A stretch of DNA of 64,000 nucleotides from Candidatus Omnitrophota bacterium (GCA_030681595.1 JAUXSB010000009.1:24265-88264); one strand, 5' to 3'. Counted from the first letter of the stretch, positions 2,745 through 60,136 are shown. Made by a program: numbers and translations. The notes: generated from the letters alone by a model not told the origin.

Positions 2745-3191
2745 ATGTATCTTACTGAAATAAAGCGGCCAATCGGGGCATGCAAAAGGCGTAAAATTGT
2801 CGGCAGGGGAGAGAGTTCCGGCCACGGAAAAACTTCTACCAGAGGCAGTAATGGTCAGAGGGCGCGTTCAGGCAGGGGGCCTATTTTGGGTTTTGAAGGA
2901 GGCCAGACACCCTTAATCCGAAGGATACCAAAACGGGGATTCCATCATAGCCCCAAAGAAGAATTTCAGTTAGTCAATATAGGCAGTTTAGCCAGATTTG
3001 ATGCTGATATGCTCATCGATCCGCAGTTATTAGAAACTAAAGGCTTGATAAGGAGCAGGAATAAACCGGTTAAGATATTAGGCGGGGGAAAAGTAAGTAT
3101 TTCTTTAGTGGTAAAGGCGCATGCTTTTTCCAAATCCGCAAAGGATTTAATTGAGAAAGCCGGCGGAAAGACAGAATGCTTAAAGCCTTAG
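2745..3191 (+). CDS. rplO: 50S ribosomal protein L15
   Basis: Gly/Arg-rich N-terminus (GRGESSGHGKTSTRGSNGQRARSGRG). Directly follows S5, so the L30 gene is absent. Confidence 0.9.
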   Translation: MYLTEIKRPIGACKRRKIVGRGESSGHGKTSTRGSNGQRARSGRGPILGFEGGQTPLIRRIPKRGFHHSPKEEFQLVNIGSLARFDADMLIDPQLLETKGLIRSRNKPVKILGGGKVSISLVVKAHAFSKSAKDLIEKAGGKTECLKP

Positions 3192-4522
3192 CTAATTCTT
3201 TTAAGATCCCTGATCTAAAAAGAAAGATTATAGTAACTTTAGGCTTGTTGGTAGTATATAGATTGGGCTGTTTTATTCCTACTCCCGGAATAGACAGCCA
3301 CGCATTGGCTGAATTTTTTAATAGAATCTCCCGTACGCAGGGAGGAGCGCTCTTTGGTATAATGAATATGTTTTCCGGCGGGGCAATGGAGAAGCTGACC
3401 ATTTTTGCCTTAGGGATCATGCCTTATATATCGAGCTCGATTATCATGCAGCTTTTAACCGCAGTAATACCGGCGCTTGAGAAAATAGCCAAGGAAGGTA
3501 AATCTGGGCATGAGAAGATTAATCAGTATACAAGGATAGGTACAGTTTTTCTGGCAGTAATACAATCTGATTTTATTGCTTTATGGCTGGAGAGCCCCAC
3601 GCAATTCGGCGGGTTAAATATTGTTTCTTTCCCCGGGTGGAAGTTTAGGCTGCTAACCGTATTTACCCTTACGGCGGGCACAATTTTTATTATGTGGCTG
3701 GGTGAGCAGATTCAGGAACGCGGCATCGGCAACGGCATATCTCTGGTGATTACTACCGGTATTATCTCTAGTATCCCAACGGCAGCAAACCAGTTATGGA
3801 TTTTAATTTCTCCTTTTTCGCCGCAAAACCGCACGCTTAGCCCCTTTACACTTTTGATTATGGCGGTACTTTTGGTAGGGGTTATTTTTGCTGTCACCGG
3901 CATTACGCAGGCGCAGCGTAAAATCCCCGTGCAGTATGCGCGCAGAGTAGTAGGGCGCAAGATTTATGGGGGGCAAAGCACATATATTCCTCTAAAAGTG
4001 GACCAGTCAGGAGTCATCGCGATCATTTTTGCTCAGTCCATAATTCTTTTTCCGGCGACTATCGCTGCTTTTATACCTAACCCGGCTTTTCAGCGTTTAG
4101 CAGAAAGTTTAATGCGCGGGCATTTACTCTATACGATAGTTTATGCGCTCCTGATAGTATTTTTTTGTTATTTCTATACGGCAATAGTTTTTAATCCGGT
4201 AGATATATCTGAAAATATGAAAAAATACGGCGGGTTTATTCCGGGGATAAGGCCGGGTAACCCCACATCGGATTTCCTGGATTTTGTAATGACGCGTATA
4301 ACGTTAGCCGGGGCTTTATTTATTGCCTTCATCGCGATATCCCCCGATTTGATTATGGCTTGGCTGAAAGTACCGTATTTAGTGGCGTCATTTTTCGGCG
4401 GGACGGCTATCCTGATTGTCGTAGGTGTTATGCTGGATACAATCAGGCAGATTGAATCAAATTTAATAATGCATAATTACGAAGGTTTTTTAAGGTCGGG
4501 GCGTATTAAAGGCAGGCGTTAA
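3176..4522 (+). CDS. secY: preprotein translocase subunit SecY
   Basis: 448 aa, ten hydrophobic segments, conserved SecY motifs (GIMPYISSSIIMQLL). Overlaps the rplO stop. Confidence 0.93.
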   Translation: MLKALANSFKIPDLKRKIIVTLGLLVVYRLGCFIPTPGIDSHALAEFFNRISRTQGGALFGIMNMFSGGAMEKLTIFALGIMPYISSSIIMQLLTAVIPALEKIAKEGKSGHEKINQYTRIGTVFLAVIQSDFIALWLESPTQFGGLNIVSFPGWKFRLLTVFTLTAGTIFIMWLGEQIQERGIGNGISLVITTGIISSIPTAANQLWILISPFSPQNRTLSPFTLLIMAVLLVGVIFAVTGITQAQRKIPVQYARRVVGRKIYGGQSTYIPLKVDQSGVIAIIFAQSIILFPATIAAFIPNPAFQRLAESLMRGHLLYTIVYALLIVFFCYFYTAIVFNPVDISENMKKYGGFIPGIRPGNPTSDFLDFVMTRITLAGALFIAFIAISPDLIMAWLKVPYLVASFFGGTAILIVVGVMLDTIRQIESNLIMHNYEGFLRSGRIKGRR

Positions 4523-6335: not shown

Positions 6336-6411
6336 TTTAAGTTATAGGTAAGAAGTTATGAGTTATGATTTATAACTTGTAACTCTTAAGCGACTGAAAG
6401 GAGCGAAGCAA

Positions 6412-14119: not shown

Positions 14120-15109
14120 ATGCCAAAGGATTTATTGTTGCGCCTGAAAGAAAAGGTTTTAAATGGCGAATGCCTTACTTTCCGGGAAGCTGAAGGCTTG
14201 AGTTTGATTGATAATAACAGTCTAATGCTGTTCTTATCCGCCGCTTCGGAAATTACCAAGAAATACCGCTGTGATACTATAAATTTGTGCGCTATTACCA
14301 ACGCCCGTTCAGGGCTGTGTCCGGAGGATTGCTCATTTTGCGCGCAATCCTCCCATCACAATACGGCAATAGCGGTATATCCGCTTATTTCTGAAGATGC
14401 GTTGGTGAAGAGGGCGGAGGAGGCAGTAAAACATTTAACTAACCGTTTTTGCATTGTTACCAGCGGCCGTAGCGTAAATGACAGCGAAACAGAAGTAATT
14501 GCAGGCGCAATCGTAAAAATAAAAAATAAATTCCCCCGTCTTAAGATAGACGCTTCGCTGGGCATATTAAATGAGAAACAGATAGAAAAACTAAAGGCGT
14601 CCGGCCTTGACCGCTATAACCATAATTTAGAGACAGCGGAAAGTTATTTTTCTAAAATATGCACAACACATACCTATGCCGATAGGATAAAAACTATTAG
14701 GCTTATTAAAAAAGCAGGTATTGAGATCTGCTGCGGCGGCATTATCGGTTTAGGCGAAACAGAAAGCCAAAGGATAGAGTTTGCTTTCGCATTAGCCAAA
14801 TTGGATATTGACAGCCTGCCGCTTAATTTTCTAAACCCTATCCCAAAAACCCGCCTTGCGGCTATTCAGCCGCTTTTGCCTTTAGATATCCTTAAAACCA
14901 TTGCCTTGTTCCGTTTTATACTTCCAAAAAAAGAAATAAGAATCTGCGGAGGTAGGCAGGCCAATTTACGCAGCCTGCAGCCGCTTATTTTTACGGCCGG
15001 AGCAGATGCGATTATCATCGGAAACTACCTTACTACCAGAGGCAGTTATCCGCAGGATGACCTATTGATGATTCAGGATTTAGGCCTTAAAGTCGATGCA
15101 CTACCTTAA
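14120..15109 (+). CDS. bioB: biotin synthase (radical SAM)
   Basis: CPEDCSFC radical-SAM motif and BioB YNHNLET motif. Confidence 0.92.
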   Translation: MPKDLLLRLKEKVLNGECLTFREAEGLSLIDNNSLMLFLSAASEITKKYRCDTINLCAITNARSGLCPEDCSFCAQSSHHNTAIAVYPLISEDALVKRAEEAVKHLTNRFCIVTSGRSVNDSETEVIAGAIVKIKNKFPRLKIDASLGILNEKQIEKLKASGLDRYNHNLETAESYFSKICTTHTYADRIKTIRLIKKAGIEICCGGIIGLGETESQRIEFAFALAKLDIDSLPLNFLNPIPKTRLAAIQPLLPLDILKTIALFRFILPKKEIRICGGRQANLRSLQPLIFTAGADAIIIGNYLTTRGSYPQDDLLMIQDLGLKVDALP

Positions 15110-16364: not shown

Positions 16365-17036
16365 ATGGTTAAAACGATAGTTTTTTTGCCGGGATGGAGT
16401 TTTAAGGCGCAAATTTGGGCAGGGCAAGAGAAATATTTCTCGGAATTAGGCTTTAGGACCATCCTGTGTGAATTAGAAGAGTTAGACGGCTACATTAAAA
16501 GTACCCGGCTAGAAGAAACCGTATTTATTGCCTGGTCGCTTGGTTGGTTTAGGTTATTGGATGTTTTGAAAAGCAGCTTTTCTTTGCCTTGCGCAATAGT
16601 AGGGGTGTCTGCCGCCATAAAATTTAAAAAATCGTTATTACGCCTCATGATACAGGAATTTAAAAAAGACCATAGGAAGGCATTATCGGATTTTGACAGT
16701 TGGTTATTTAGCCCTGAAGAAAAAGATTCGTCCGGTTTCGGTATTTTAAACGGGCTAATAGCGCAATCAAGAATAAATGATAAAGAAAGATTACTCAGGG
16801 ATTTATTGTTTCTTAAGGCACTAGACTTAGAAGGTTTCTTAACTACTTTTCGCCTGCCTGTTTTTTTAGTGTCAGGTAATAAAGATATAATTTGCCCTAT
16901 CGATGAAGCGATGCATTTAAAGCCGGTTTTACCCGATAGTCAGATAAAGGTAATGGAAGCAGGTCATATTCCTTTTTTGACAAGTAGCGCAGAATTTAAC
17001 CATTGTATCGGCTCATACCTACTGAGCCTCCGATAA
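16365..17036 (+). CDS. alpha/beta-hydrolase, pimeloyl-ACP methyl ester esterase (BioH/BioG-like)
   Basis: 223 aa, nucleophile elbow AWSLG. Lies between bioF and bioC. Confidence 0.7.
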   Translation: MVKTIVFLPGWSFKAQIWAGQEKYFSELGFRTILCELEELDGYIKSTRLEETVFIAWSLGWFRLLDVLKSSFSLPCAIVGVSAAIKFKKSLLRLMIQEFKKDHRKALSDFDSWLFSPEEKDSSGFGILNGLIAQSRINDKERLLRDLLFLKALDLEGFLTTFRLPVFLVSGNKDIICPIDEAMHLKPVLPDSQIKVMEAGHIPFLTSSAEFNHCIGSYLLSLR

Positions 17037-17340
17037 ATAATAGGCACATTGGCTGAGACGATTTGGTTTTGGCTATATTGAAAGCCAAACCACTGCTTTC
17101 TAGCTTTGTTGGAGCGAGACAAGGAACGAGGACGCCGGCGTAGTCGCAGTACTACGCCAAAGACGAGTGACGCAGGCGCAGCCCAAAAGCGGCCAGCCCC
17201 TTCGGGGAAGGCGCATCTTTGGCCTGCTACCGCGTTGCTCCTCCTCGAAGTAGTGCATAGACTACATCTTCGTCGTCGCGCCTTGCATCAGGCTCAAATC
17301 TTCGCCTTCCGATGTACCCATTATTTATCGGAGGCTCAGT
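17021..17340. mobile_element. MITE-like 320-bp insert bounded by perfect 20-bp terminal inverted repeats, between bioH and bioC
   Basis: 17021-17040 (actgagcctccgataaataa) is the exact reverse complement of 17321-17340. The interior is GC-rich, unlike the flanks, and contains a cccc-ttcg-gggg hairpin. The left TIR supplies the bioH stop codon. The interior shares an identical 25-mer with the hisS 3' end (50128-50152). The ORF 17106..17342 inside it is probably spurious. Confidence 0.5.
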
Positions 17341-23973: not shown

Positions 23974-24051
23974 CGGGGCGTGGCTCAGTTTGGCTAGAGC
24001 ACTTGAATGGGGTTCAAGGGGTCGACAGTTCGAGTCTGTCCGCCCCGACCA
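23974..24051 (+). tRNA. tRNA-Pro (anticodon GGG), with encoded CCA
   Basis: Manually folded. Acceptor CGGGGCG/CGCCCCG with the C1:G72 pair typical of tRNA-Pro and U8. D-stem GCTC/GAGC. Anticodon stem CTTGA/TCAAG with loop AT-GGG-GT. T-arm GACAG-TTCGAGT-CTGTC. Discriminator A, then CCA. Confidence 0.8.
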
Positions 24052-27339: not shown

Positions 27340-27994
27340 TAAGAGTAACCAGAAACCAGTAACCAGTAACCAGAATTTAAAAAATAAGAGAATATTGATT
27401 ACGGCAGGCCCCACCTGGGTTCCTATAGATAGTGTTAGGGTAATTAGTAATATTGCTACAGGAGAGACCGGAATTATTTTAGCCCAAAAGTTACGCAAGG
27501 CAGGCTGTAAAGTTACGTTGTTACTTGGACCTGTGGGTAATTATCAGAATAAGAAAATACGGCTTTTGCGTTTTAGGTTTTTTGAAGAATTAAAGGCTAT
27601 ACTTAAGAGAGAATTATGCCGCGGTAGATACGATATTGTAATTCATTCAGCCGCGGTTTCTGACTATAAGCCGAAGAAATCTTTTAGGCGAAAGCTTGTA
27701 TCCAGCATTAAAAATCTTAAGATAGATTTAATCCCGGCAGAAAAAATCATCGATTTAATTAAGCGGACTGACAATTCTTTATTTTTGGCGGGTTTTAAAT
27801 TTGAGCCTGATATAAATAAGGAAAAACTTTTGGCGCAGGCAAGAGAATTAATGAAGCGTAGCGCTTGTGATTTGGTGGTAGCTAATACGCTTAGGGGCGG
27901 ACGTTATTCGGCATATTTAGTCAGAAGCGATAAAGTTCAAGGCCCGTTATATACTAAAAAAAAATTAGCAGAACAGTTGATAAAAAATCTATGA
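27329..27994 (+). CDS. coaB: phosphopantothenate-cysteine ligase (CoaB-only). Start uncertain.
   Basis: ITAGPTWVPIDSVRVISNIATGETG motif. The first ~25 codons contain the aaccagt heptamer tract and may be 5' leader. An alternative TTG start is near 27403. Confidence 0.75.
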   Translation: MDINKSNQKPVTSNQNLKNKRILITAGPTWVPIDSVRVISNIATGETGIILAQKLRKAGCKVTLLLGPVGNYQNKKIRLLRFRFFEELKAILKRELCRGRYDIVIHSAAVSDYKPKKSFRRKLVSSIKNLKIDLIPAEKIIDLIKRTDNSLFLAGFKFEPDINKEKLLAQARELMKRSACDLVVANTLRGGRYSAYLVRSDKVQGPLYTKKKLAEQLIKNL

Positions 27995-32132: not shown

Positions 32133-34940
32133 ATGAACGAAATTCCCTCCCGATATAACCCCAAAGAAGTTGAAGAGAAATGGTATAAGTTTTGGGAAGA
32201 AAATAAGCTATTTTCCGCAAAGCCCACTCCTAATAAGAAACCTTTCTGTATAGTCATACCTCCGCCTAATGTGACCGGAATTTTACACATGGGGCATGCC
32301 TTGAATAATTTCATACAGGATATTTTAACCCGTTACCAGCGAATGAAAGGTAGTGAGGCGCTCTGGATACCTGGGACAGACCATGCCGGGATTGCCACGC
32401 AGAACGTGGTGGAGAAGAAATTGGCTAAAGAAGGTAAAAAACGGCAGGACTTAGGGCGCGATGAATTTTTAAAGGAAGTCTGGAAATGGCGCGAGGAATA
32501 CGGTTCAACTATTATCAAGCAGCTTAAGAAATTAGGCGCATCCTGTGATTGGGAGCGTACTCGTTTTACTATGGATGAGGGCTACAGTGATGCAGTGCTG
32601 GAAGTATTTATTCATTTATATAATAAAGGCCTCATTTATCGGGGAAAGCGTATTATTAATTGGTGCCCGCGTTGTTCAACCGCGCTTAGCGATGAAGAAG
32701 CTCCTTATAAGGAATTGGAAGGGCAGCTTTATTATATACGGTATCCAATTAAAGTCACCAGTCATACCCTTGCGGGCACAGGCCAGTCATACCCTTGCGG
32801 GCACAGGCCAGTCACCAGAAAAAAACAGAAAACTATCAATTACGTAGTAGTGGCGACGACGCGGCCGGAGACGATGTTGGGCGATACGGCGGTAGCGGTT
32901 AATCCCAAAGACAAGCGCTATAAAGACCTGATAGGAAAGACTGTTATTCTTCCTTTGGTTGAGCGGGAAATTAAAATTATCGCTGATAATTTTGTTGATC
33001 CGAAATTCGGTACAGGCGCGGTTAAGGTTACCCCTGCCCATGATCCTAACGATTACCAGATGGGGCTGCGGCATAATCTAGAGTTTATTAATATTATGCA
33101 GGTCGATGGTGTGTTGAATTCTAATGCCGGCGAATACGATGGTATGGATAGGTTTGAGGCACGCCAGGCAATAGTTAACGATTTAAAAGAGCGTAAGCTG
33201 CTGGAGAAAATAGAACCGCATATGCATTCCGTAGGGCATTGCTATCGTTGTTCAACCGTAATTGAGCCATATTTGTCCAACCAGTGGTTTGTGAAAATGA
33301 AGCCTTTATCCAAACTCGCGTTGGAAGCGGTGAAAAAAGGCGAAATTAAATTTTATCCTAAGCGTTGGACAAAGGTTTATTTAAACTGGATGGAAAATAT
33401 TCAGGATTGGTGTATCTCGCGGCAGATTTGGTGGGGGCATAGGATGCCTGTTTATTATTGTAAAAATTGCTACAAGCCTCAAGCTTCAGGCTCCAAGCTT
33501 CAAACTGAAAAAGAAAAGCCTGCAGCAGATAAGGGTATCTTTGTTTCAAAGAATAAGCCGGAGAAATGCCCGGATTGCGGCTCAAGCGATATTTATCAAG
33601 ACGAAGATGTGTTGGATACTTGGTTTTCTTCCTGGCTCTGGCCGTTTGCGACGTTTGGCTGGCCGTTTACAAGCTACAAGCCTCAAGCTGCAAGCGACAA
33701 GCAAAAAAGCCTGCAGCAGGACGAACTTAATTACTTCTACCCTACTTCGGTATTAGTGACTGCTCAGGAAATAATCTTTTTCTGGGTGGCGCGCATGATT
33801 ATGGCGGGCTTTGAATTTATGGGTAAAAAGCCGTTTTCCGATGTTTATATCCATGGTACGGTGCGCGACGATACCGGTAAAAAGATGTCTAAGTCTCTGG
33901 GTAATATTATTGACCCGCTTGAAATTATAAATGAGTTTGGATCAGACGCGCTTCGTTTCAGTATTATTTCCCTGACCAGCGTAGGCCAGGATGTCTTTTT
34001 ATCTAGGAATAAATTTGAATACGGCAGGAATTTCGCCAATAAAGTCTGGAATGCCTCGCGCTATACCATAATGAACCTTAAGCCAGAAGAAATAAATGTG
34101 GATTTGTGCGCCTATTCTAAAGGTATATCCGGGCTTGCCGAGAAGTGGATTTTAAGCCGGTTTTACAGCGCTTTAGATAGAATAGAGAAGGCGCTTAAGC
34201 AGTATAAAATTAACGAGGCGGCTAAGGTAATGTATGAATTTTTCTGGCATAATTTCTGTGATTGGTACCTGGAATTTTCTAAGTTAACATTGGGGAGGCG
34301 CCAAACGCAGGTTGTGCTTTATAAGGTATTGGAAAAATCCCTGCGTGTTATGCATCCGTTCTTGCCGCATCTGACCGAAGAAATATGGCATAACCTGCCG
34401 GGTACAAAATCGTCCATAATGACGGAAAGCTGGCCGCATTTGCAGAAACAGTTTATCTCAAAAACAACGGATAAACAGATGCAGGTTTTGATAGATTTAA
34501 TTTCCCTGATAAGGAATATCCGTTCTGAATGGCACATATTGGAACACGCTGAAATAGAATGTATTATTAAGACTACAGATAAGGCTTCAAAAAAACTCAT
34601 ACAGGAAAACGATATTTATCTAAAAAAATTAGCAAAGCTAGGCCAGATAAAAATCGTAGAGAAAGCCGAAGATGTTTCCATGTGCGCATCCGGCGTGGCA
34701 GGAAAACTCGATTTTTATATACCACTTGAAAAACTTATTGATTTGACAAAAGAAAAAGAGCGCCTGTCTAAACAAATACAGTCATTTGAGGCGCAGTTTA
34801 AGGCTTTGAGAGAAAGATTAAAGAATAAGGAATTTCTTAAAAAAGCGCCCAACGAAGTGGTGGAAAAAGAAAAAATCAGGTTAGAAGAGTTATCGAAATT
34901 AATCAAGCGTATTGGCGATAATTTAAAAGTATTGGGTTAA
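32133..34940 (+). CDS. valS: valine--tRNA ligase, carrying in-frame repeat insertions
   Basis: 935 aa. HIGH (PPNVTGILHMGHA), KMSKS, editing domain, and a C-terminal coiled coil. Confidence 0.93.
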   Translation: MNEIPSRYNPKEVEEKWYKFWEENKLFSAKPTPNKKPFCIVIPPPNVTGILHMGHALNNFIQDILTRYQRMKGSEALWIPGTDHAGIATQNVVEKKLAKEGKKRQDLGRDEFLKEVWKWREEYGSTIIKQLKKLGASCDWERTRFTMDEGYSDAVLEVFIHLYNKGLIYRGKRIINWCPRCSTALSDEEAPYKELEGQLYYIRYPIKVTSHTLAGTGQSYPCGHRPVTRKKQKTINYVVVATTRPETMLGDTAVAVNPKDKRYKDLIGKTVILPLVEREIKIIADNFVDPKFGTGAVKVTPAHDPNDYQMGLRHNLEFINIMQVDGVLNSNAGEYDGMDRFEARQAIVNDLKERKLLEKIEPHMHSVGHCYRCSTVIEPYLSNQWFVKMKPLSKLALEAVKKGEIKFYPKRWTKVYLNWMENIQDWCISRQIWWGHRMPVYYCKNCYKPQASGSKLQTEKEKPAADKGIFVSKNKPEKCPDCGSSDIYQDEDVLDTWFSSWLWPFATFGWPFTSYKPQAASDKQKSLQQDELNYFYPTSVLVTAQEIIFFWVARMIMAGFEFMGKKPFSDVYIHGTVRDDTGKKMSKSLGNIIDPLEIINEFGSDALRFSIISLTSVGQDVFLSRNKFEYGRNFANKVWNASRYTIMNLKPEEINVDLCAYSKGISGLAEKWILSRFYSALDRIEKALKQYKINEAAKVMYEFFWHNFCDWYLEFSKLTLGRRQTQVVLYKVLEKSLRVMHPFLPHLTEEIWHNLPGTKSSIMTESWPHLQKQFISKTTDKQMQVLIDLISLIRNIRSEWHILEHAEIECIIKTTDKASKKLIQENDIYLKKLAKLGQIKIVEKAEDVSMCASGVAGKLDFYIPLEKLIDLTKEKERLSKQIQSFEAQFKALRERLKNKEFLKKAPNEVVEKEKIRLEELSKLIKRIGDNLKVLG
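32755..32818 (+). repeat. in-frame repeat insertion A: 25-bp unit tcatacccttgcgggcacaggccag in tandem x2, flanked by tcaccag direct repeats
   Basis: Read directly. The two copies are translated in different frames (SHTLAGTGQ, then SYPCGHRPV). Net insert 57 bp. The same unit recurs in nadC. Confidence 0.85.
33468..33533 (+). repeat. in-frame repeat insertion B copy 1 (heptamer-based: five NNCAAGC units plus aaaagcctgcagcag)
   Basis: ctacaagcctcaagct…aagcctgcagcag recurs 200 bp downstream. It sits between the two Cys pairs of the valS zinc knuckle. Confidence 0.7.
33668..33725 (+). repeat. in-frame repeat insertion B copy 2
   Basis: acaagc tacaagc ctcaagc tgcaagc gacaagc aaaaaagcctgcagcagg. 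The 3' block is read in a different frame from copy 1. Confidence 0.7.
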
Positions 34941-34943
34941 ATT

Positions 34944-35843
34944 ATGCAGAAAAAAGAAATTATCAATATCGTAAAAAATGCCCTTAGGGAAGATGCCGCG
35001 GATAGAGATATTACTACGCAGGCGCTTATTCCTCTGGATTTAAGGGCAGCGGCAAGGATTATTACCAAAGAAAATGGGGTAGTTTGCGGATTAAGCATTG
35101 CGGAACTCGCCTTTAAGCTGTTGGATAAAAATATCAAGTTTAAGGCAAAAGTCAAAGATGGTGCGGTAATAAAAAATGGTAGTTGTTTGGCAGAGATTTA
35201 CGGTAGGGCACGGCCAATTTTATCTGCAGAACGTACCGCACTCAATTTCTTAGGGAATCTTTGTGGAATAGCCGCGTTTACCCGTCAATTCGTAGAAAAA
35301 GTTAAACCGTATAAAACTAAGATTCTGGATACCAGAAAAACTACGCCGAATTTAAGAATACTGGAAAAATACGCGGTGCGTTGCGGCGGCGGGTTCAACT
35401 ACCGTTTTGATTTAAGCGAACAAATATTGGTTAAAGATAACCACATAAGAATCACAAATGACAAATTACAAATGGCAAATTTAAAATATGTCGTTGAGGC
35501 CGTACGAAAAAACGTGAAGGGTAAAAAAATTGAGATTGAGGTAGATAATTTAAGGCAGTTCAAAGAAGTAATTGCTGTGGCGCCCGATATTATCATGCTG
35601 GATAATTTTAATCTGTCTGATATCAAAAAAGCGGTAAAGATTAAAAATCGGTCACCAGTCATACCCTTGCGGGCACAGGCCAGCCACCGGTCGCCGGTAA
35701 AACTAGAAGCATCTGGTGGAATAACTTTAAGAAATATTAAGAAAGTTGCTGCAACCGGCGTAGATTTTATCTCTATCGGCGCGCTCACCCATTCAGTTAA
35801 ATCCTTGGATTTATCTTTAGAAATCACTAAAAAATCTGCGTAA
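34944..35843 (+). CDS. nadC: nicotinate-nucleotide pyrophosphorylase (carboxylating), carrying an in-frame repeat insertion
   Basis: 299 aa QPRTase. The usual C-terminal …LEASGGI motif is interrupted by the insert. Confidence 0.88.
   Translation: MQKKEIINIVKNALREDAADRDITTQALIPLDLRAAARIITKENGVVCGLSIAELAFKLLDKNIKFKAKVKDGAVIKNGSCLAEIYGRARPILSAERTALNFLGNLCGIAAFTRQFVEKVKPYKTKILDTRKTTPNLRILEKYAVRCGGGFNYRFDLSEQILVKDNHIRITNDKLQMANLKYVVEAVRKNVKGKKIEIEVDNLRQFKEVIAVAPDIIMLDNFNLSDIKKAVKIKNRSPVIPLRAQASHRSPVKLEASGGITLRNIKKVAATGVDFISIGALTHSVKSLDLSLEITKKSA
35651..35690 (+). repeat. in-frame insertion of repeat A (single 25-bp unit, flanks tcaccag / ccaccgg) in nadC
   Basis: Identical 25-mer to the valS copies, translated in the third possible frame (VIPLRAQAS). 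Net ~39 bp. Confidence 0.85.
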
Positions 35844-48879: not shown

Positions 48880-50181
48880 ATGTCATTTGTTTTTCGGGCT
48901 GTGCGCGGAACGAAAGATATTTTGCCTGATGAGGCAGAATATTTGCGCCATATTGAAGTTAAGGCGCGGGAGATTTCTTCTCTTTATGGATATAGAGAGG
49001 TTATTACTCCTGTGATAGAAAACCGCGATTTATTCGTCCGTTCCCTGGGAAAGGACACGGAGGTTATCGGAAAGCAGATGTTTATCATCGAGCGGGGAGA
49101 TGATATTATCGCCCTGCGTCCCGAAGCAACTGCCGGAGTAATCCGCGCTTATTTGGAAAATAATTTAAATAGCCGCAACTTGTTAGCCAAGTTTTATTAT
49201 TTCGGGCCGATGTTCAGGGCGGAACGTCCGCAAAAAGGGCGCCTGCGGCAGTTTCACCATCTGGGGGTTGAAGCAGTAGGTTCATCCAGCCCCTTGTTAG
49301 ATGTGGAAATTATTTCTTTGGCAGAGGTAATCTTAAAAAATATCGGCATAAGCGGTTTTAAAATAAAAATCAATACTTTGGGGTGTGTCGAAGATAAAAA
49401 AGCATTTGCTGAAAAGCTGCGCGTTATTTTAGGGGGGAAAATTTCTGATTTTTGCCAGGATTGCCGGGAAAGGTTTGATCGTAATGTCTTTCGGCTCCTT
49501 GACTGTAAAAACAGCTCCTGTAAAAATATTATCTTAGGCCTTAATATTAAGCGTACGGATTATCTTTGCGGGGAATGTTTAGAACATTTTGATACGGTTT
49601 TAGCTGGATTAAAGAATATAGGCGTAAACTATGAAGAGAGCGCGCATTTAGTGCGGGGCTTAGATTATTATACGCGCACGGTTTTTGAGATTACGCATTC
49701 AGAATTAGGCGCTCAGGATGCCGTAGGTGCCGGAGGGAGATACGATAATTTGGTGGAGGAGTTGGGCGGAGAGCCGACGGCTGCCATAGGTTTTGCTTTT
49801 GGAGTCGAGAGGCTGTTGTTAGTATCAAGTGCCAAGTGCCAAGTGCCAAGTAAAGATTTAGTTTTTTTGATTGCTTTAGGCAAGGGGGCGGAGGCAGCGA
49901 GCGTTAAGCTGTTGTATAGCCTGCGCCAAAACGGGATAAAGGCAGATACGCTTTATGAAGAGAAATCTCTTAAAGGGGCAATGCGTAGAGCTAATGATTT
50001 AGGCGCAAAATATGTTTTGATTTTAGGCGAAAACGAGTTAAAGAAAAACGTGGTAGTTTTTAAGGATATGGCTTCGGGGGAGCAAAGAGAGATAAAGACA
50101 GAAGAAGTAATAGCCGAACTTATGGCTTTGGCTATATTGAAAGCCAAACCATTGCCTTATCGGCTTAAAGGTCAAATATAG
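48880..50181 (+). CDS. hisS: histidine--tRNA ligase
   Basis: 433 aa class-II aaRS with a HisRS anticodon-binding C-terminus. Contains a (caagtgc)x3 tract (49827-49853) and a repeat-derived 3' end. Confidence 0.92.
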   Translation: MSFVFRAVRGTKDILPDEAEYLRHIEVKAREISSLYGYREVITPVIENRDLFVRSLGKDTEVIGKQMFIIERGDDIIALRPEATAGVIRAYLENNLNSRNLLAKFYYFGPMFRAERPQKGRLRQFHHLGVEAVGSSSPLLDVEIISLAEVILKNIGISGFKIKINTLGCVEDKKAFAEKLRVILGGKISDFCQDCRERFDRNVFRLLDCKNSSCKNIILGLNIKRTDYLCGECLEHFDTVLAGLKNIGVNYEESAHLVRGLDYYTRTVFEITHSELGAQDAVGAGGRYDNLVEELGGEPTAAIGFAFGVERLLLVSSAKCQVPSKDLVFLIALGKGAEAASVKLLYSLRQNGIKADTLYEEKSLKGAMRRANDLGAKYVLILGENELKKNVVVFKDMASGEQREIKTEEVIAELMALAILKAKPLPYRLKGQI

Positions 50182-50246
50182 CAGGTCGCACGTATCAGCT
50201 AAAAAACTTAATGTTTAGTCCTTAGTTTTTAATACTTAATATTCTG

Positions 50247-51623
50247 ATGTTACGTACACACACTTGTGGTGAGTTAACAATAAACGATGTTGGTAAAGAG
50301 ATAACGCTTTGCGGCTGGGTGCATGCCCGGCGCGACCACGGAAAGCTTGTGTTTATTGATATCCGTGATAGGTATGGATTGACTCAGGTGGTATTTTTGC
50401 CTAAGCATTATCCAGAGGCCTATAGTGTAGCGCAGAGTTTAAGGTCGGAATTTGTAATCAGGTTGACCGGGCAGGCCGGGCAGCGGCCTAAAGGAACAGA
50501 GAACCCTAAAATCGCTACCGGACAGGTGGAAGTAGCCGCAAAAACGTTGGAAATACTAAGCGTTTCTGAAACCCCGCCTTTTGAAATAAACGATGAGTTA
50601 GACCCTACGGAGGAAATGCGCCTTGCGTATCGTTATCTGGATTTACGACGGCCTAAGACAGCGGAAAAATTATTCCGGAGGCATAAAGCATGTAAGGTTA
50701 TCCGGGACTTTATGGATAAAGAAGGTTTTATTGATGTAGAGACACCTATCTTAACTAAATCTACTCCTGAGGGTGCCCGTGATTATCTGGTTCCTTCAAG
50801 GCTCAATCCGGGAAGCTTTTATGCTCTTCCCCAATCGCCGCAGTTGTTTAAGCAGATACTGATGGTTTCAGGTTTTGATAAGTATTACCAGATAGCCAAG
50901 TGTTTCCGCGATGAAGACTTAAGGGCCGATCGGCAACCGGAATTCACCCAATTGGATATTGAAATGTCATTTTTGTCTGAAGAAGATTTATTTTCCCTGA
51001 TAGAAAAATTACTGGTTGACCTATTTAAAGCCTTAAAAGGTACTGAGTTGAAAATTCCTTTCCCGCGCATGAGTTATAGCGAAGCAATGGAGAAATATAA
51101 AAGCGATAAGCCTGATATAAGAAAAACCCCGGATGAGTATGCTTTTCTCTGGGTGTTGGATTTTCCGCTTTTTAAATACAATAAAGAAGAGAAGAGATGG
51201 GAAAGTGAACATCATCCGTTTACTGCGCCTAACACCGAAGATATTGCTTATTTGGATTCTGATCTAAAACGGGTGCGTTCGCGCGCCTACGATTTAGTTT
51301 TAAACGGTACTGAATTAGGAAGCGGTTCAATAAGGATTCACGAGCGTCACCTGCAGGAGAAGATTTTTAATATTATCGGTCTGTCTGAAAGCCAGATTAG
51401 AGGGCGTTTTGGTTTTCTTTTGGAGGCTTTCAGGTTTGGGGTTCCTCCGCACGGAGGATTTGCTTTGGGCTTAGACAGATTTTTGGCTATACTTTGCGCT
51501 TGCGAAAGCATTAGGGAGGTGATTGCTTTTCCTAAGACGCAAAAAGCGGCGTGTTTATTGACTTCTGCTCCGTCGGAGGTAGATAAAAAACAACTAGATG
51601 AATTAGGGATAAAGATTAAATAA
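50247..51623 (+). CDS. aspS: aspartate--tRNA ligase, bacterial-type but lacking the GAD insertion domain
   Basis: 458 aa. The N-terminal OB domain and class-II motifs align with bacterial AspRS. The sequence runs straight from …SDKPDIRK to TPDEYAFLWVLDFPLF, where E. coli has a ~130 aa insertion. Confidence 0.88.
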   Translation: MLRTHTCGELTINDVGKEITLCGWVHARRDHGKLVFIDIRDRYGLTQVVFLPKHYPEAYSVAQSLRSEFVIRLTGQAGQRPKGTENPKIATGQVEVAAKTLEILSVSETPPFEINDELDPTEEMRLAYRYLDLRRPKTAEKLFRRHKACKVIRDFMDKEGFIDVETPILTKSTPEGARDYLVPSRLNPGSFYALPQSPQLFKQILMVSGFDKYYQIAKCFRDEDLRADRQPEFTQLDIEMSFLSEEDLFSLIEKLLVDLFKALKGTELKIPFPRMSYSEAMEKYKSDKPDIRKTPDEYAFLWVLDFPLFKYNKEEKRWESEHHPFTAPNTEDIAYLDSDLKRVRSRAYDLVLNGTELGSGSIRIHERHLQEKIFNIIGLSESQIRGRFGFLLEAFRFGVPPHGGFALGLDRFLAILCACESIREVIAFPKTQKAACLLTSAPSEVDKKQLDELGIKIK

Positions 51624-54495: not shown

Positions 54496-54901
54496 AGTAG
54501 CCGTTAATCAGAAAAAAATAAGAGACGTTATAAAACTGATTTTGTATAAAGAGCACTCTAGTGCAGGAGATATTTCGGTTACAGTCACTACCGATAATAA
54601 AATCCGAAAATTTAACCGCGCATACCTGAATAAAGATTTGCCCACCGATGTATTATCGTTTAGTTTCTTAGGTAAAAAGCCAGAAAAAATAATTCCGGTT
54701 TCCATATTAGGCGATATCATAGTTTCGGCTGATACGGCAGTTTCTAATGCGGTAATTTATAAAACTACTCCAAAAGAAGAGCTTTATTTATATGTTATAC
54801 ATGGCCTGCTGCATTTATTAGGCTACAATGATATTACGCCGGGCAAGCGTGCGGTGATGAAAAAGAAAGAGCTGCATTATCTTCGAAGGATTAAATTTTA
54901 G
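54434..54901 (+). CDS. ybeY: rRNA maturation endoribonuclease YbeY. Start uncertain.
   Basis: HGLLHLLGYND metal-binding motif and TDVLSFSF. The ORF track starts at 54395 and overlaps the upstream gene. The internal Met at 54434 or a GTG near 54464 is more likely. Confidence 0.82.
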   Translation: MCVLPTPRKTVRIAIINQQRKVAVNQKKIRDVIKLILYKEHSSAGDISVTVTTDNKIRKFNRAYLNKDLPTDVLSFSFLGKKPEKIIPVSILGDIIVSADTAVSNAVIYKTTPKEELYLYVIHGLLHLLGYNDITPGKRAVMKKKELHYLRRIKF

Positions 54902-54968
54902 CGGTTAGTGTTTAGCGGATAGAACCGGCATTTTCTACACGCTATACGCTATACGCTGTACGCTAACG

Positions 54969-59147: not shown

Positions 59148-60136
59148 TGGGAAAATATTTTAAAGAAGGGAGAAGAGAGAAGGGAGAAGGGCGAAAGATT
59201 TTTTATTTTTTTCTATCTTCTATTCTCTATCTTCTATTTTTCGGATTTTACGGCTGTGCCGTAAAGCCCTATCATAGCCAGACACGCTTGATAATGGGCA
59301 CCGTGATGGAGATAGTTGCTCAGGATGAGAAAGCGATTGAAGCGGCATTTAAGGAAATCGAGCATATTGACGATTTAATGAGCAATTATAAGCCGGAAAG
59401 CGAAATTTCGCGCCTGAATAAAGACGGCCAGGTTAAAGCATCGCCTGAGACATTGGCGGTAGTGAAAGCGTCAAAAAAGCTTTTCCGGTTTAGCGAAGGG
59501 GCTTTTGACATAACCGTAGGGCCGTTAATAAAATTATGGAATGTTAAGGGGAATATGCAAAAAGATGCTTCTTTAATAAGGATACCCGGGGAGGGAAAAA
59601 TAAAAGAAGCATTATCTTGCGTGGGAACAAATTTTATTGATATAGACGAAAAAAACAGTATAATACGGTTAAAGAAGAAAAGCGTTATTTTAGATTTAGG
59701 GGCAATTGCTGCCGGTTACGCTGTGGATAGGGCAATCGCCGTATTAAAACAAAACGGCGTAAGAAATGCTTTGGTTAATGCCGGCGGCGAAATATATTGT
59801 TTAGGAAAAAAGGGTTTTTCCTACTGGAAAGTAGGTTTGCAAAATCCGCGTAAAAAGGATGGCGTAGCAGATATAGTTAAGCTGCGGAATAGGGCGGTAG
59901 CGACTTCTGGCGACTACGAGCAGTTTTTTGTATATGAAAACAAGCGCTACGCGCATATAATTGACCCGCGTACCGGATATCCGGTAGATAACGGTATAAT
60001 CTCGGTAAGTGTTTTTGCCGATGATTGCACAACCGCCGACGCTTTAGGCACAGCGATTTTCGTTTTAGGAAAAGAAAAAGGCGAGCAGTTAGCAAAGCGG
60101 TTTAAGAACGTGGAAGTAAAGATAATTACAAAATAA
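59144..60136 (+). CDS. apbE: FAD:protein FMN transferase (ApbE family) lipoprotein
   Basis: ApbE motifs (DITVGPLIKLW, ATSGDYEQ…HIIDPRTG). N-terminal TM/lipobox GC. Confidence 0.85.
   Translation: MMGKYFKEGRREKGEGRKIFYFFLSSILYLLFFGFYGCAVKPYHSQTRLIMGTVMEIVAQDEKAIEAAFKEIEHIDDLMSNYKPESEISRLNKDGQVKASPETLAVVKASKKLFRFSEGAFDITVGPLIKLWNVKGNMQKDASLIRIPGEGKIKEALSCVGTNFIDIDEKNSIIRLKKKSVILDLGAIAAGYAVDRAIAVLKQNGVRNALVNAGGEIYCLGKKGFSYWKVGLQNPRKKDGVADIVKLRNRAVATSGDYEQFFVYENKRYAHIIDPRTGYPVDNGIISVSVFADDCTTADALGTAIFVLGKEKGEQLAKRFKNVEVKIITK

Follow-up and report, generated by a model that had tools for sequence, protein, structure and literature searches.

Tandem heptamers and an inserted palindromic repeat in a histidine--tRNA ligase gene of Candidatus Omnitrophota

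How an essential gene comes to contain both a tandem array of a 7-nt unit and a 3' end that recurs in a spacer of the same genome is the question raised by hisS of a Candidatus Omnitrophota bacterium. The gene (histidine--tRNA ligase, HisRS; 433 aa) occupies positions 48880-50181 on the + strand of a 64,000-nt stretch of DNA (GCA_030681595.1, JAUXSB010000009.1:24265-88264), which is referred to here as the window and from whose first letter all positions are counted. It was quite probably shaped by two separate repeat processes, a tandem array located in a linker and a 45-nt mobile hairpin element inserted near the stop codon.

The gene was identified as an open reading frame (ORF), by Pfam (the standard HisRS domains, tRNA-synt_His at residues 10-312 and HGTP_anticodon at 328-414) and by a 100% match to a histidine--tRNA ligase from an NCBI Candidatus Omnitrophota metagenome-assembled genome (MAG). 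HisRS is an essential enzyme, only one gene for it was seen at the locus, and hisS is intact and probably functional. An AlphaFold model based on an 18-sequence alignment had a mean predicted local distance difference test score (pLDDT) of 76.

At the 3' end of the gene, a covariance model built from 48 units of the repeat family described below matched 50120-50167 with 67.6 bits (E 1.6e-20). The unit itself, TGGCTTTGGCTATATTGAAAGCCAAACCATTGCCTTATCGGCTTA, is a 45-nt palindromic repeat at 50123-50167 on the + strand and is read in-frame as residues 415-429 (MALAILKAKPLPYRL). It is bordered on the left by TTA at 50120-50122, either the target or the left copy of a duplication, and ends in GGCTTA at 50167, its own terminal TTA lying at 50165-50167. 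Positions 50122-50152 form a bulged 11-bp hairpin (arms 50122-50133 and 50142-50152, loop 50134-50141; DNA fold of -10.2 kcal/mol, z -3.7). No promoter- or terminator-like site was found to overlap the inserted hairpin. The Pfam anticodon-binding match stops at residue 414 (...VIAEL), which agrees with the guess, in a preliminary description of this DNA, that the domain ends near ...EVIAEL; the last helix (residues 407-420) enters the insert, and residues 420-433 have pLDDT below 50 in the AlphaFold model.

The repeat-derived tail is absent from the nearest orthologues: the two closest (loci L001 and L003; 87-88% identity, 420 aa) end in LNSILNT and LNSIHNT and do not have the unit tail. What follows the unit in the window (50168-50181, + strand) reads, together with A50167, AAA GGT CAA ATA TAG (KGQI-stop); it falls outside the family consensus, has no other copy in the ~0.9 Mb of fetched loci and forms no hairpin. 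This is probably the native hisS end. When the unit was deleted in silico, the product ended ...V-I-A-E-L-K-G-Q-I-stop at 418 aa, next to 420 aa in the nearest relatives. The repeat includes neither the stop nor the last four codons, so that the native end was probably extended; an insertion that kept the frame, four codons ahead of the native stop, is the likeliest history, and it would have lengthened the end without replacing it. The proposal that a repeat insertion had replaced the C-terminus and stop of hisS therefore holds for the insertion and probably fails for the replacement, given a unit of 45 nt, a stop outside it, and in-frame filled and empty sites elsewhere; the peptide quoted for its "last 19 codons" (ELMALAILKAKPLPYRLKGQI) has 21 residues.

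The identity on which that proposal rested was recovered in full: 50127-50151 equals 17068-17092 of the bioH-bioC spacer at 25/25 nt (blastn E ~1e-8 within the window), and the similarity extends to 33/36 nt and, counted from alignments over the unit, to ~38/45. The spacer thus holds a second, diverged 45-nt unit at 17064-17108 (+ strand; covariance hit 17061-17108, at 50 bits for a copy that was itself in the training alignment). This unit is nested in a larger structure (17021-17340; 320 nt) with 32-nt inverted repeats (29/32) and an interior of 256 nt at 55% GC, compared with 42% for the window, and the left arm of the structure supplies the bioH stop codon. Beyond the unit, the structure had no match in the fetched loci or in Rfam, and its remainder was rejected as a member of the family since only the 45-nt segment matches other loci. 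The "MITE-like element" (miniature inverted-repeat transposable element) of the preliminary description is thus right as to the shared segment, which is merely nested in that structure and is not identical with it. With filters off, the covariance model found two copies only in the window; a possible third at 14874-14918 scored 10 bits and was not credible.

Metagenome contigs were scanned with a degenerate pattern, which returned at least 120 stretches where, by our own estimate, ~3 were expected by chance; the statistics that follow are for 139 units among the matches listed. All named hosts of the listed metagenome matches were Omnitrophota, and a 20-mer of the hairpin had five exact matches in species-representative genomes, four of them in Omnitrophota MAGs. 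The family consensus begins after a left-flanking TTA and runs TGGCT-TT-GGCT-loop-AGCC-AAA-CCATTGCC-YTNY-GGCTTA; it folds into an 11-bp bulged hairpin plus a 3-bp GCC/GGC mini-stem (DNA -10 to -13 kcal/mol, z ~-3.8). The palindrome lies inside the unit, shifted towards its left end. Two stem pairs that the search pattern left free were 99.2% paired and covaried among the 48 units of the model (20 double-change cells vs 4.1 when shuffled). Compensatory stem changes are also present at L006, one of the exact genome matches, where three head-to-tail units pass from TTTGGCT/AGCCAAA to TGCGGCT/AGCCGCA. No terminal inverted repeats were found, the unit ends TGGCTTTGGC... and ...CTCTGGC not being inverted copies, and neither the consensus TTATGGCTTTGGCTAT.GGAAGCCAAACCATTGCCYT..GGCTTA nor its complement contains a GTAG or CGTC tag.

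By length, 90 units were 42 nt, 15 were 43 nt, 6 were 44 nt, 27 were 45 nt and one was 46 nt, so that 117 of the 139 (84%) were 42 or 45 nt, both multiples of three. TTA stood at the unit end in 134/139, and in the left flank of non-tandem units it was found in 61/84 cases, with CTA in a further 9/84. Open frames were found in ~75-93% of units for all three sense frames and two antisense frames. A single match in viral_contigs lacked the 3' part of the family and looks like chance, and carriage by phage was rejected on this account. A GC-rich palindrome (GCCTGCCGGCAGGC / GCAGGCAGGCATYGCC) adjoins 42-nt units at L024, L049, L059, L062, L089, L108 and L121; it may represent a small element family of its own or one related to these units.

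Copies of the family occur in both orientations and several frames in unrelated ORFs and in spacers, and 34 of 125 arrays among the listed matches lie at least 150 nt inside long ORFs. The host genes included enolase (twice), a P-type ATPase (inside the E1-E2 domain), an ABC-F ATPase, TsaD, FtsK, an RND pump, a 1492-aa protein and a radical-SAM/methyltransferase fusion with three tandem units in its linker; Pfam confirmed six hosts, among them enolase, the P-type ATPase, ABC-F, TsaD and the radical-SAM/methyltransferase. The enolase genes provide reciprocal filled and empty sites. L085 is filled (...TATTTA[TGGCT...GGCTTA]GGCC...) where L069 is empty (...TATTTAGGCC...), and conversely an antisense unit follows ...AASSFC in L069 at a site that is empty in L085. 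In both cases the insertion amounts to exactly 42 nt and duplicates TTA (or TAA). Proteins at least 88% identical to the query differ at one surface loop of enolase, which carries 0, 1 or 4 tandem units, and the named enolase matches were all Omnitrophota. In alignment A5 of Omnitrophota enolases (P0121-P0128) this loop falls at columns 260-305, and in other lineages it is occupied by unrelated inserts of 10-20 residues. Another insert, the 7 residues SLPAGQA, was seen at columns 144-150 in P0123-P0128.

Units whose length is not a multiple of three were rarer in an ORF context (3/49) than elsewhere (18/76). Deep intragenic copies were antisense in 16 of 21 cases; the antisense unit encodes a hydrophilic peptide (KPEGNGLASNSQSHK) and the sense frames are hydrophobic, and the antisense excess may be the product of a survivorship filter. 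The family also reaches the other end of hisS. At L010, two antisense 44-nt units (2939-3025) stand directly upstream of the real hisS ATG, and they account for the 15-residue N-terminal "extension", spurious or real, of proteins P0004-P0007. A different repeat-derived hisS tail was seen at L009 (P0051, 4240-4318, at a contig end), where a repeated segment of ~36 nt, itself with an inverted repeat, encodes a 25-residue C-terminal extension in which NPVRNTKFP is duplicated.

The second feature of hisS lies in the interior of the gene. Tandem Repeats Finder (TRF) located a perfect array, (CAAGTGC)x3.7, at 49826-49851 on the + strand (period 7, 100% match), and the three-unit 21-mer had 0 matches in 100 dinucleotide shuffles. 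The frame runs V315 S S A K C Q V P S K D326, the array encoding the S316-S324 linker that joins the last helix of the catalytic domain to the first strand of the anticodon-binding domain. In the AlphaFold model it is coil at residues 318-324, with pLDDT below 50, between a helix at 309-315 and a strand at 327-333. The array showed no local DNA fold. The tract had been described earlier at 49827-49853 with 3.5 repeats; its existence and its peptide (SAKCQVPSK, with which the reading-frame translation agrees) are correct, its coordinates were off by 1-2 nt and TRF counts 3.7 copies. The earlier account missed that this tract belongs to a class of period-7 arrays spread over the genome, and that the array recurs at one position in the HisRS linker of orthologues.

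This recurrence was examined in the DNA of nine orthologous hisS loci (54-88% protein identity) plus the window gene. A tandem array of period 7, 8, 14 or 16 overlaps the linker in 9 of the 10 genes and is almost the sole array within the gene body. The unit differs among loci: CAAGTAT/CAAGTGT/CAAGTGT in L001, CAAGCAT x3.9 in L003, GTGYCAR in L009, GTCTCCA x4.4 in L011, the 8-mer GTGTCAAA x4.2 in L010, a degenerate 16-mer in L012 and a 14-mer x2.7 in L135, with two units only in L133 and none in L134. The tract length is 3.7-4.4 units of 7 nt, or 4 units of 8 nt plus one codon, and across the 18 aligned proteins the linker length is equal within one residue. Because the units are uniform within a lineage and differ across lineages (the flanking coding DNA being ~78% identical) while linker length is constant, the pattern reads as a signature of concerted evolution under a length (frame) constraint. 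That gain or loss of a unit would shift the frame, a constraint noted in the preliminary description, is borne out by fixed orthologue lengths and by out-of-frame copy numbers not being seen; lethality of a single-unit gain or loss is consistent with the fixed linker length.

Period-7 arrays are also in excess across the window. Compared with dinucleotide shuffles, TRF found 17 arrays of period 7 where 2.3 were expected and 7 of period 14 where 0.45 were expected, and periods other than 7 and 14 were not enriched. No fixed unit is used (AGTTATG, CGCTACA, AATTGGA, AACCAGA, TACAAGC, AATGACA, CAAGTGC, CTATACG and AGAAGGG are among those present). Most of the arrays lie in spacers, frequently as an array followed by an approximate inverted copy, and such pairs can form long repeat-built hairpins. 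Inverted pairs are found upstream of dnaE (44824-44850/44864-44903), at 59164-59195/59211-59237 (59164-59237 being the ApbE N-terminus or upstream of it) and, as 8-mers, in the groES-groEL spacer (40176-40209/40213-40247). Within coding sequence, period-7 arrays occur in ValRS (33469-33512 and 33668-33702), NadC (35450-35487) and the CoaB N-terminus (27344-27375). The groES-groEL spacer has AGTTGGTTGGTT in L001 vs four 8-mers per arm in the window, and upstream of dnaE both carry heptamer-array hairpins with unrelated units. With L001 HisRS 87% identical, this comparison points to fast turnover of spacer arrays.

The mechanism that we favor combines these two sets of results. Arrays of 7 nt arise and become homogenized frequently in this lineage, probably via slipped-strand mispairing or intra-array conversion. 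In spacers they would expand freely, often as hairpin-forming inverted pairs; in hisS they would persist only in a low-confidence, presumably sequence-tolerant linker, where selection would purge changes of frame or linker length, so that the unit sequence turns over and the length stays. Independently of this, a non-autonomous 45-nt mobile hairpin element inserted at TTA four codons before the stop. Family units being 42 or 45 nt long with open frames, such insertions are in-frame and readable, and this one, likely near-neutral, made the C-terminal tail 15 residues longer past the final helix of the anticodon-binding domain. The sequences show the array, its recurrence in position and its lineage-specific units, and likewise the insertion, the repeat family, its TTA borders and its in-frame insertions in many conserved genes; slippage or conversion, neutrality and the mode of transposition are inferred. 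Transposition may proceed with a 3-bp TTA target duplication or by single-strand, Y1-type insertion 3' of TTA. The TTA borders fit both models, a target duplication being indistinguishable from insertion 3' of TTA by an element that ends in TTA. The peculiarities of hisS are local cases of two phylum-wide repeat phenomena. A further step, that Omnitrophota possess a translation-compatible 42/45-nt mobile element throughout the phylum together with a dedicated or lineage-specific process that writes and homogenizes 7-nt arrays and maintains a flawless yet quickly changing one at a single position of an essential gene, is proposed tentatively and is somewhat doubtful. If true, arrays would be renewed by single in-frame events instead of stepwise slippage, and an RPE-like system (Rickettsia palindromic element) independent of Rickettsia, with clean TTA junctions, would be colonizing essential and housekeeping genes.

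Several observations weigh against the two-process explanation. Homogenization of an array inside an essential gene is left unexplained by it insofar as lethal frameshift intermediates would have to be avoided, and it is particularly difficult to see how all units of L010 could have passed stepwise from a 7-mer to an 8-mer. The near-neutrality of a 15-residue tail is likely and is assumed. Only two copies exist in the window, and activity in this genome is unsupported. No mobilizing enzyme was seen, the ORFs between nearby copies at L025, L062, L071 and L099 being ordinary genes, and the dominance of 42 and 45 nt may reflect two founder subfamilies rather than selection. Finally, MAFFT gave a gap of 89 nt, not 45, flanked by AACTTA, between the window and L001/L003.

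This last observation suggests a different history, in which one insertion of ~89 nt (50123-50211), with duplication of AACTTA, took the place of the native C-terminus (...AEL-NV-stop) and brought in a new stop. A single gap of that size against both L001 and L003, with AACTTA at both borders, is what such an event would leave, and closing it restores CTTAA (Leu-Asn) as in the relatives and joins the homologous heptamer tail: a degenerate period-7/14 array in the hisS-aspS spacer (50206-50240, + strand; TRF and alignment with L001 and L003) is homologous to an (ACTYAAT)n array that encodes the last HisRS residues in L001 and L003. This history is nevertheless unlikely. The consensus of the 139 listed units ends at GGCTTA, 44 nt earlier, and filled and empty sites elsewhere gain exactly one unit. 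The extra 44 nt contain no hairpin and have no other copy in the ~0.9 Mb of fetched loci, for which reasons they were also rejected as a second palindromic element. As the more distant orthologues at L010 and L012 have long tails or spacers too, L001 and L003 may carry a deletion, and given these tails and the featureless 44 nt, the 89-nt difference is more simply read as a deletion on the branch leading to L001 and L003. The 45-mer itself might instead be a selected cis element, such as an RNA hairpin, terminator or protein-binding site, that is not mobile; its stable hairpin, compensatory changes and high conservation across genomes would suit such a role. This is very improbable and is largely refuted by the occurrence of copies in both orientations and several frames in unrelated ORFs and spacers, by the reciprocal empty sites, and by the 0, 1 or 4 units at one enolase loop among close relatives, and the unit has no Rfam family, no T-run and no terminator call.

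For the linker array, the two-process explanation rests on mutational origin filtered by selection, and a minor and rather improbable rival is that the array is kept by selection on nucleic acid, through pairing with a spacer array or through a factor that reads the 7-nt periodicity. The array holds one position in 9 of 10 orthologues, intergenic arrays are often inverted, hairpin-capable pairs, and in L010 the linker array (3987-4020) can pair with a spacer array (4316-4348) over ~32 bp at -45.6 kcal/mol vs -27.8 for the best control window. The corresponding duplexes in the window, L003, L011, L012 and L135 were no better than control windows and that in L001 was merely in the top 10%; because array-tail pairing fails in those five loci, mutational origin filtered by selection is favored, and long-range pairing between array and 3' tail, significant in L010 only, was rejected as a general explanation. 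The units are moreover wholly different across lineages and loci, so that no common recognition sequence exists, and the window array has no local fold. A heptamer tract whose unit length is not a multiple of three, inside coding sequence, could also be thought to serve as a contingency locus (phase variation) or a programmed frameshift site. That role is exceedingly improbable for an array of only 3.7 units in the sole copy of an essential gene seen at the locus, with the same copy number in orthologues and with 120 HisRS homologues that are all full length and include no out-of-frame variant.

The 45-nt family was compared with known repeat systems. RPEs (Ogata et al. 2000, 2002), as outlined in PMC10969869 and PMC3733652, are dispersed palindromic repeats found in-frame in unrelated conserved genes as well as in spacers. 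The Omnitrophota family resembles these elements in adding a short peptide at loops, linkers or termini and in having filled and empty sites in related genomes, and differs from them in a unit of 42-45 nt (family range 42-46) against ~100-150 bp, in its occurrence in Omnitrophota (groundwater and sediment metagenomes), in its head-to-tail tandems and in its TTA borders with duplication. As a multi-copy palindromic repeat with in-frame insertions and empty sites it belongs with the RPE-type class, and its unit size and host lie outside the Rickettsia RPE families proper. Repetitive extragenic palindromic sequences (REPs) and their associated tyrosine transposases (RAYTs), including intragenic REPs (Di Nocera et al. 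2013, PMC3733652), offer a second comparison. REPs are likewise small imperfect palindromes, comparable in size and numerous, that often lie at gene ends and sometimes inside ORFs or supply the end of a gene, and the asymmetric hairpin-plus-tail layout is compatible with single-strand (Y1) transposition. Unlike REPs, the present family has no GTAG/CGTC tag, clusters head-to-tail and not in the alternating manner of bacterial interspersed mosaic elements (BIMEs), and has a 42-45-nt unit that is almost unchanged across different species-level genomes. No RAYT gene was seen among the ORFs between nearby copies at the four loci inspected. The closest described analogue is the RPE, followed by intragenic REPs, the likeness to RPEs being one of organization. 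A classical MITE shares the target-site duplication (TTA/TAA) and differs by its terminal inverted repeats; a derivative of the IS200/IS605 type (IS, insertion sequence) would fit the hairpin-plus-tail form and the TTA at target and element end, and no transposase was present among the inspected ORFs.

For the 7-nt arrays, the nearest parallels are other heptamer excesses. Cyanobacteria carry heptanucleotide tandem repeats, the short tandemly repeated repetitive sequences (STRRs). To these may be added the TAACTGA repeats of Beggiatoaceae, cyanobacteria and Bacteroidetes (MacGregor 2015, PMC4679880). The Omnitrophota arrays share with both a lineage-specific period-7 excess, 2-6 copies, a location mostly in spacers near gene starts or ends, and the want of a known mechanism. 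They differ in having no fixed unit, with nearly every locus using its own, in often being paired inverted copies, in lying in-frame in some essential-gene linkers (HisRS, ValRS), and in the concerted change of unit between orthologues. Phase-variable simple sequence repeats are marked by copy-number variation between close relatives that switches frames on and off in a dispensable gene, whereas here unit number is the same and the frame intact in orthologues, and the gene is that of HisRS. The linker arrays thus resemble known heptamer excesses; their in-frame, position-stable and concerted behavior is unusual. Mycobacterial interspersed repetitive units (MIRUs) are ~40-50-nt tandem units at operon gene junctions through which frames stay open; they are intergenic minisatellites and not hairpins, and to our knowledge have not been reported in-frame inside conserved enzymes. 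Unit length and open frames are similar in the hisS family, which by contrast is a hairpin and inserts in conserved enzymes. A search of the accessible library of papers returned none linking Omnitrophota with MITE-like, palindromic (CRISPR aside) or tandem repeats, an absence that is not proof of novelty. The 45-nt family is a new family of a known kind, the RPE- or REP-like coding palindromes.

In-frame palindromic repeats in genes are known mainly from Rickettsia and from some intragenic REPs, and how they spread is a standing question. For this the Omnitrophota family is a better substrate, its units being very short, its filled and empty sites exact, its borders marked by TTA and its tandem expansions in-frame, and it bears on the share of protein-length variation in metagenomes that is due to selfish DNA. 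The hisS linker arrays show that simple-sequence turnover, when limited to a disordered linker, can run continuously in an essential gene, and they are relevant to models of concerted evolution. For annotation, it matters that the N- and C-terminal "extensions" of such proteins are repeat-derived, as in P0004-P0007 and the HisRS of the window. For the window itself the practical message is modest.

The surroundings of hisS are conserved. All window genes are on the + strand, and the order dnaE, HU, hisS, aspS was kept in every orthologous locus fetched. The downstream gene, aspS (50247-51623, + strand), was identified as an ORF and by HU-hisS-aspS synteny in all orthologous loci; because of this conserved synteny and because no terminator-like site was found in the hisS-aspS interval, the two genes are probably in one operon. 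The only strong promoter-like site was a sigma-70-like promoter upstream of the HU gene. An Rfam scan of the whole window at gathering thresholds returned no family, and no T-box, riboswitch or leader; the sole tRNA of the window is a tRNA-Pro at 23974.

Other repeats were observed in and around the window. Further intergenic sites with an array and inverted copy of 7-8 nt lie at 54900-54968 and 6339-6384, and syntenic spacers of L001 have other units or copy numbers, or a single seed copy only. The ValRS array units (CAAGCNN) are similar to the unit in the hisS linker at L003. Another short repeat, GTCACCAGTCATACCCTTGCGGGCACAGGCCAGTCA, is present at 32754-32814 in ValRS (25-nt unit x2.3) and at 35651-35686 in NadC (one 97% copy); it is in-frame in these neighboring genes, in different frames, and had no copy in the other fetched loci.

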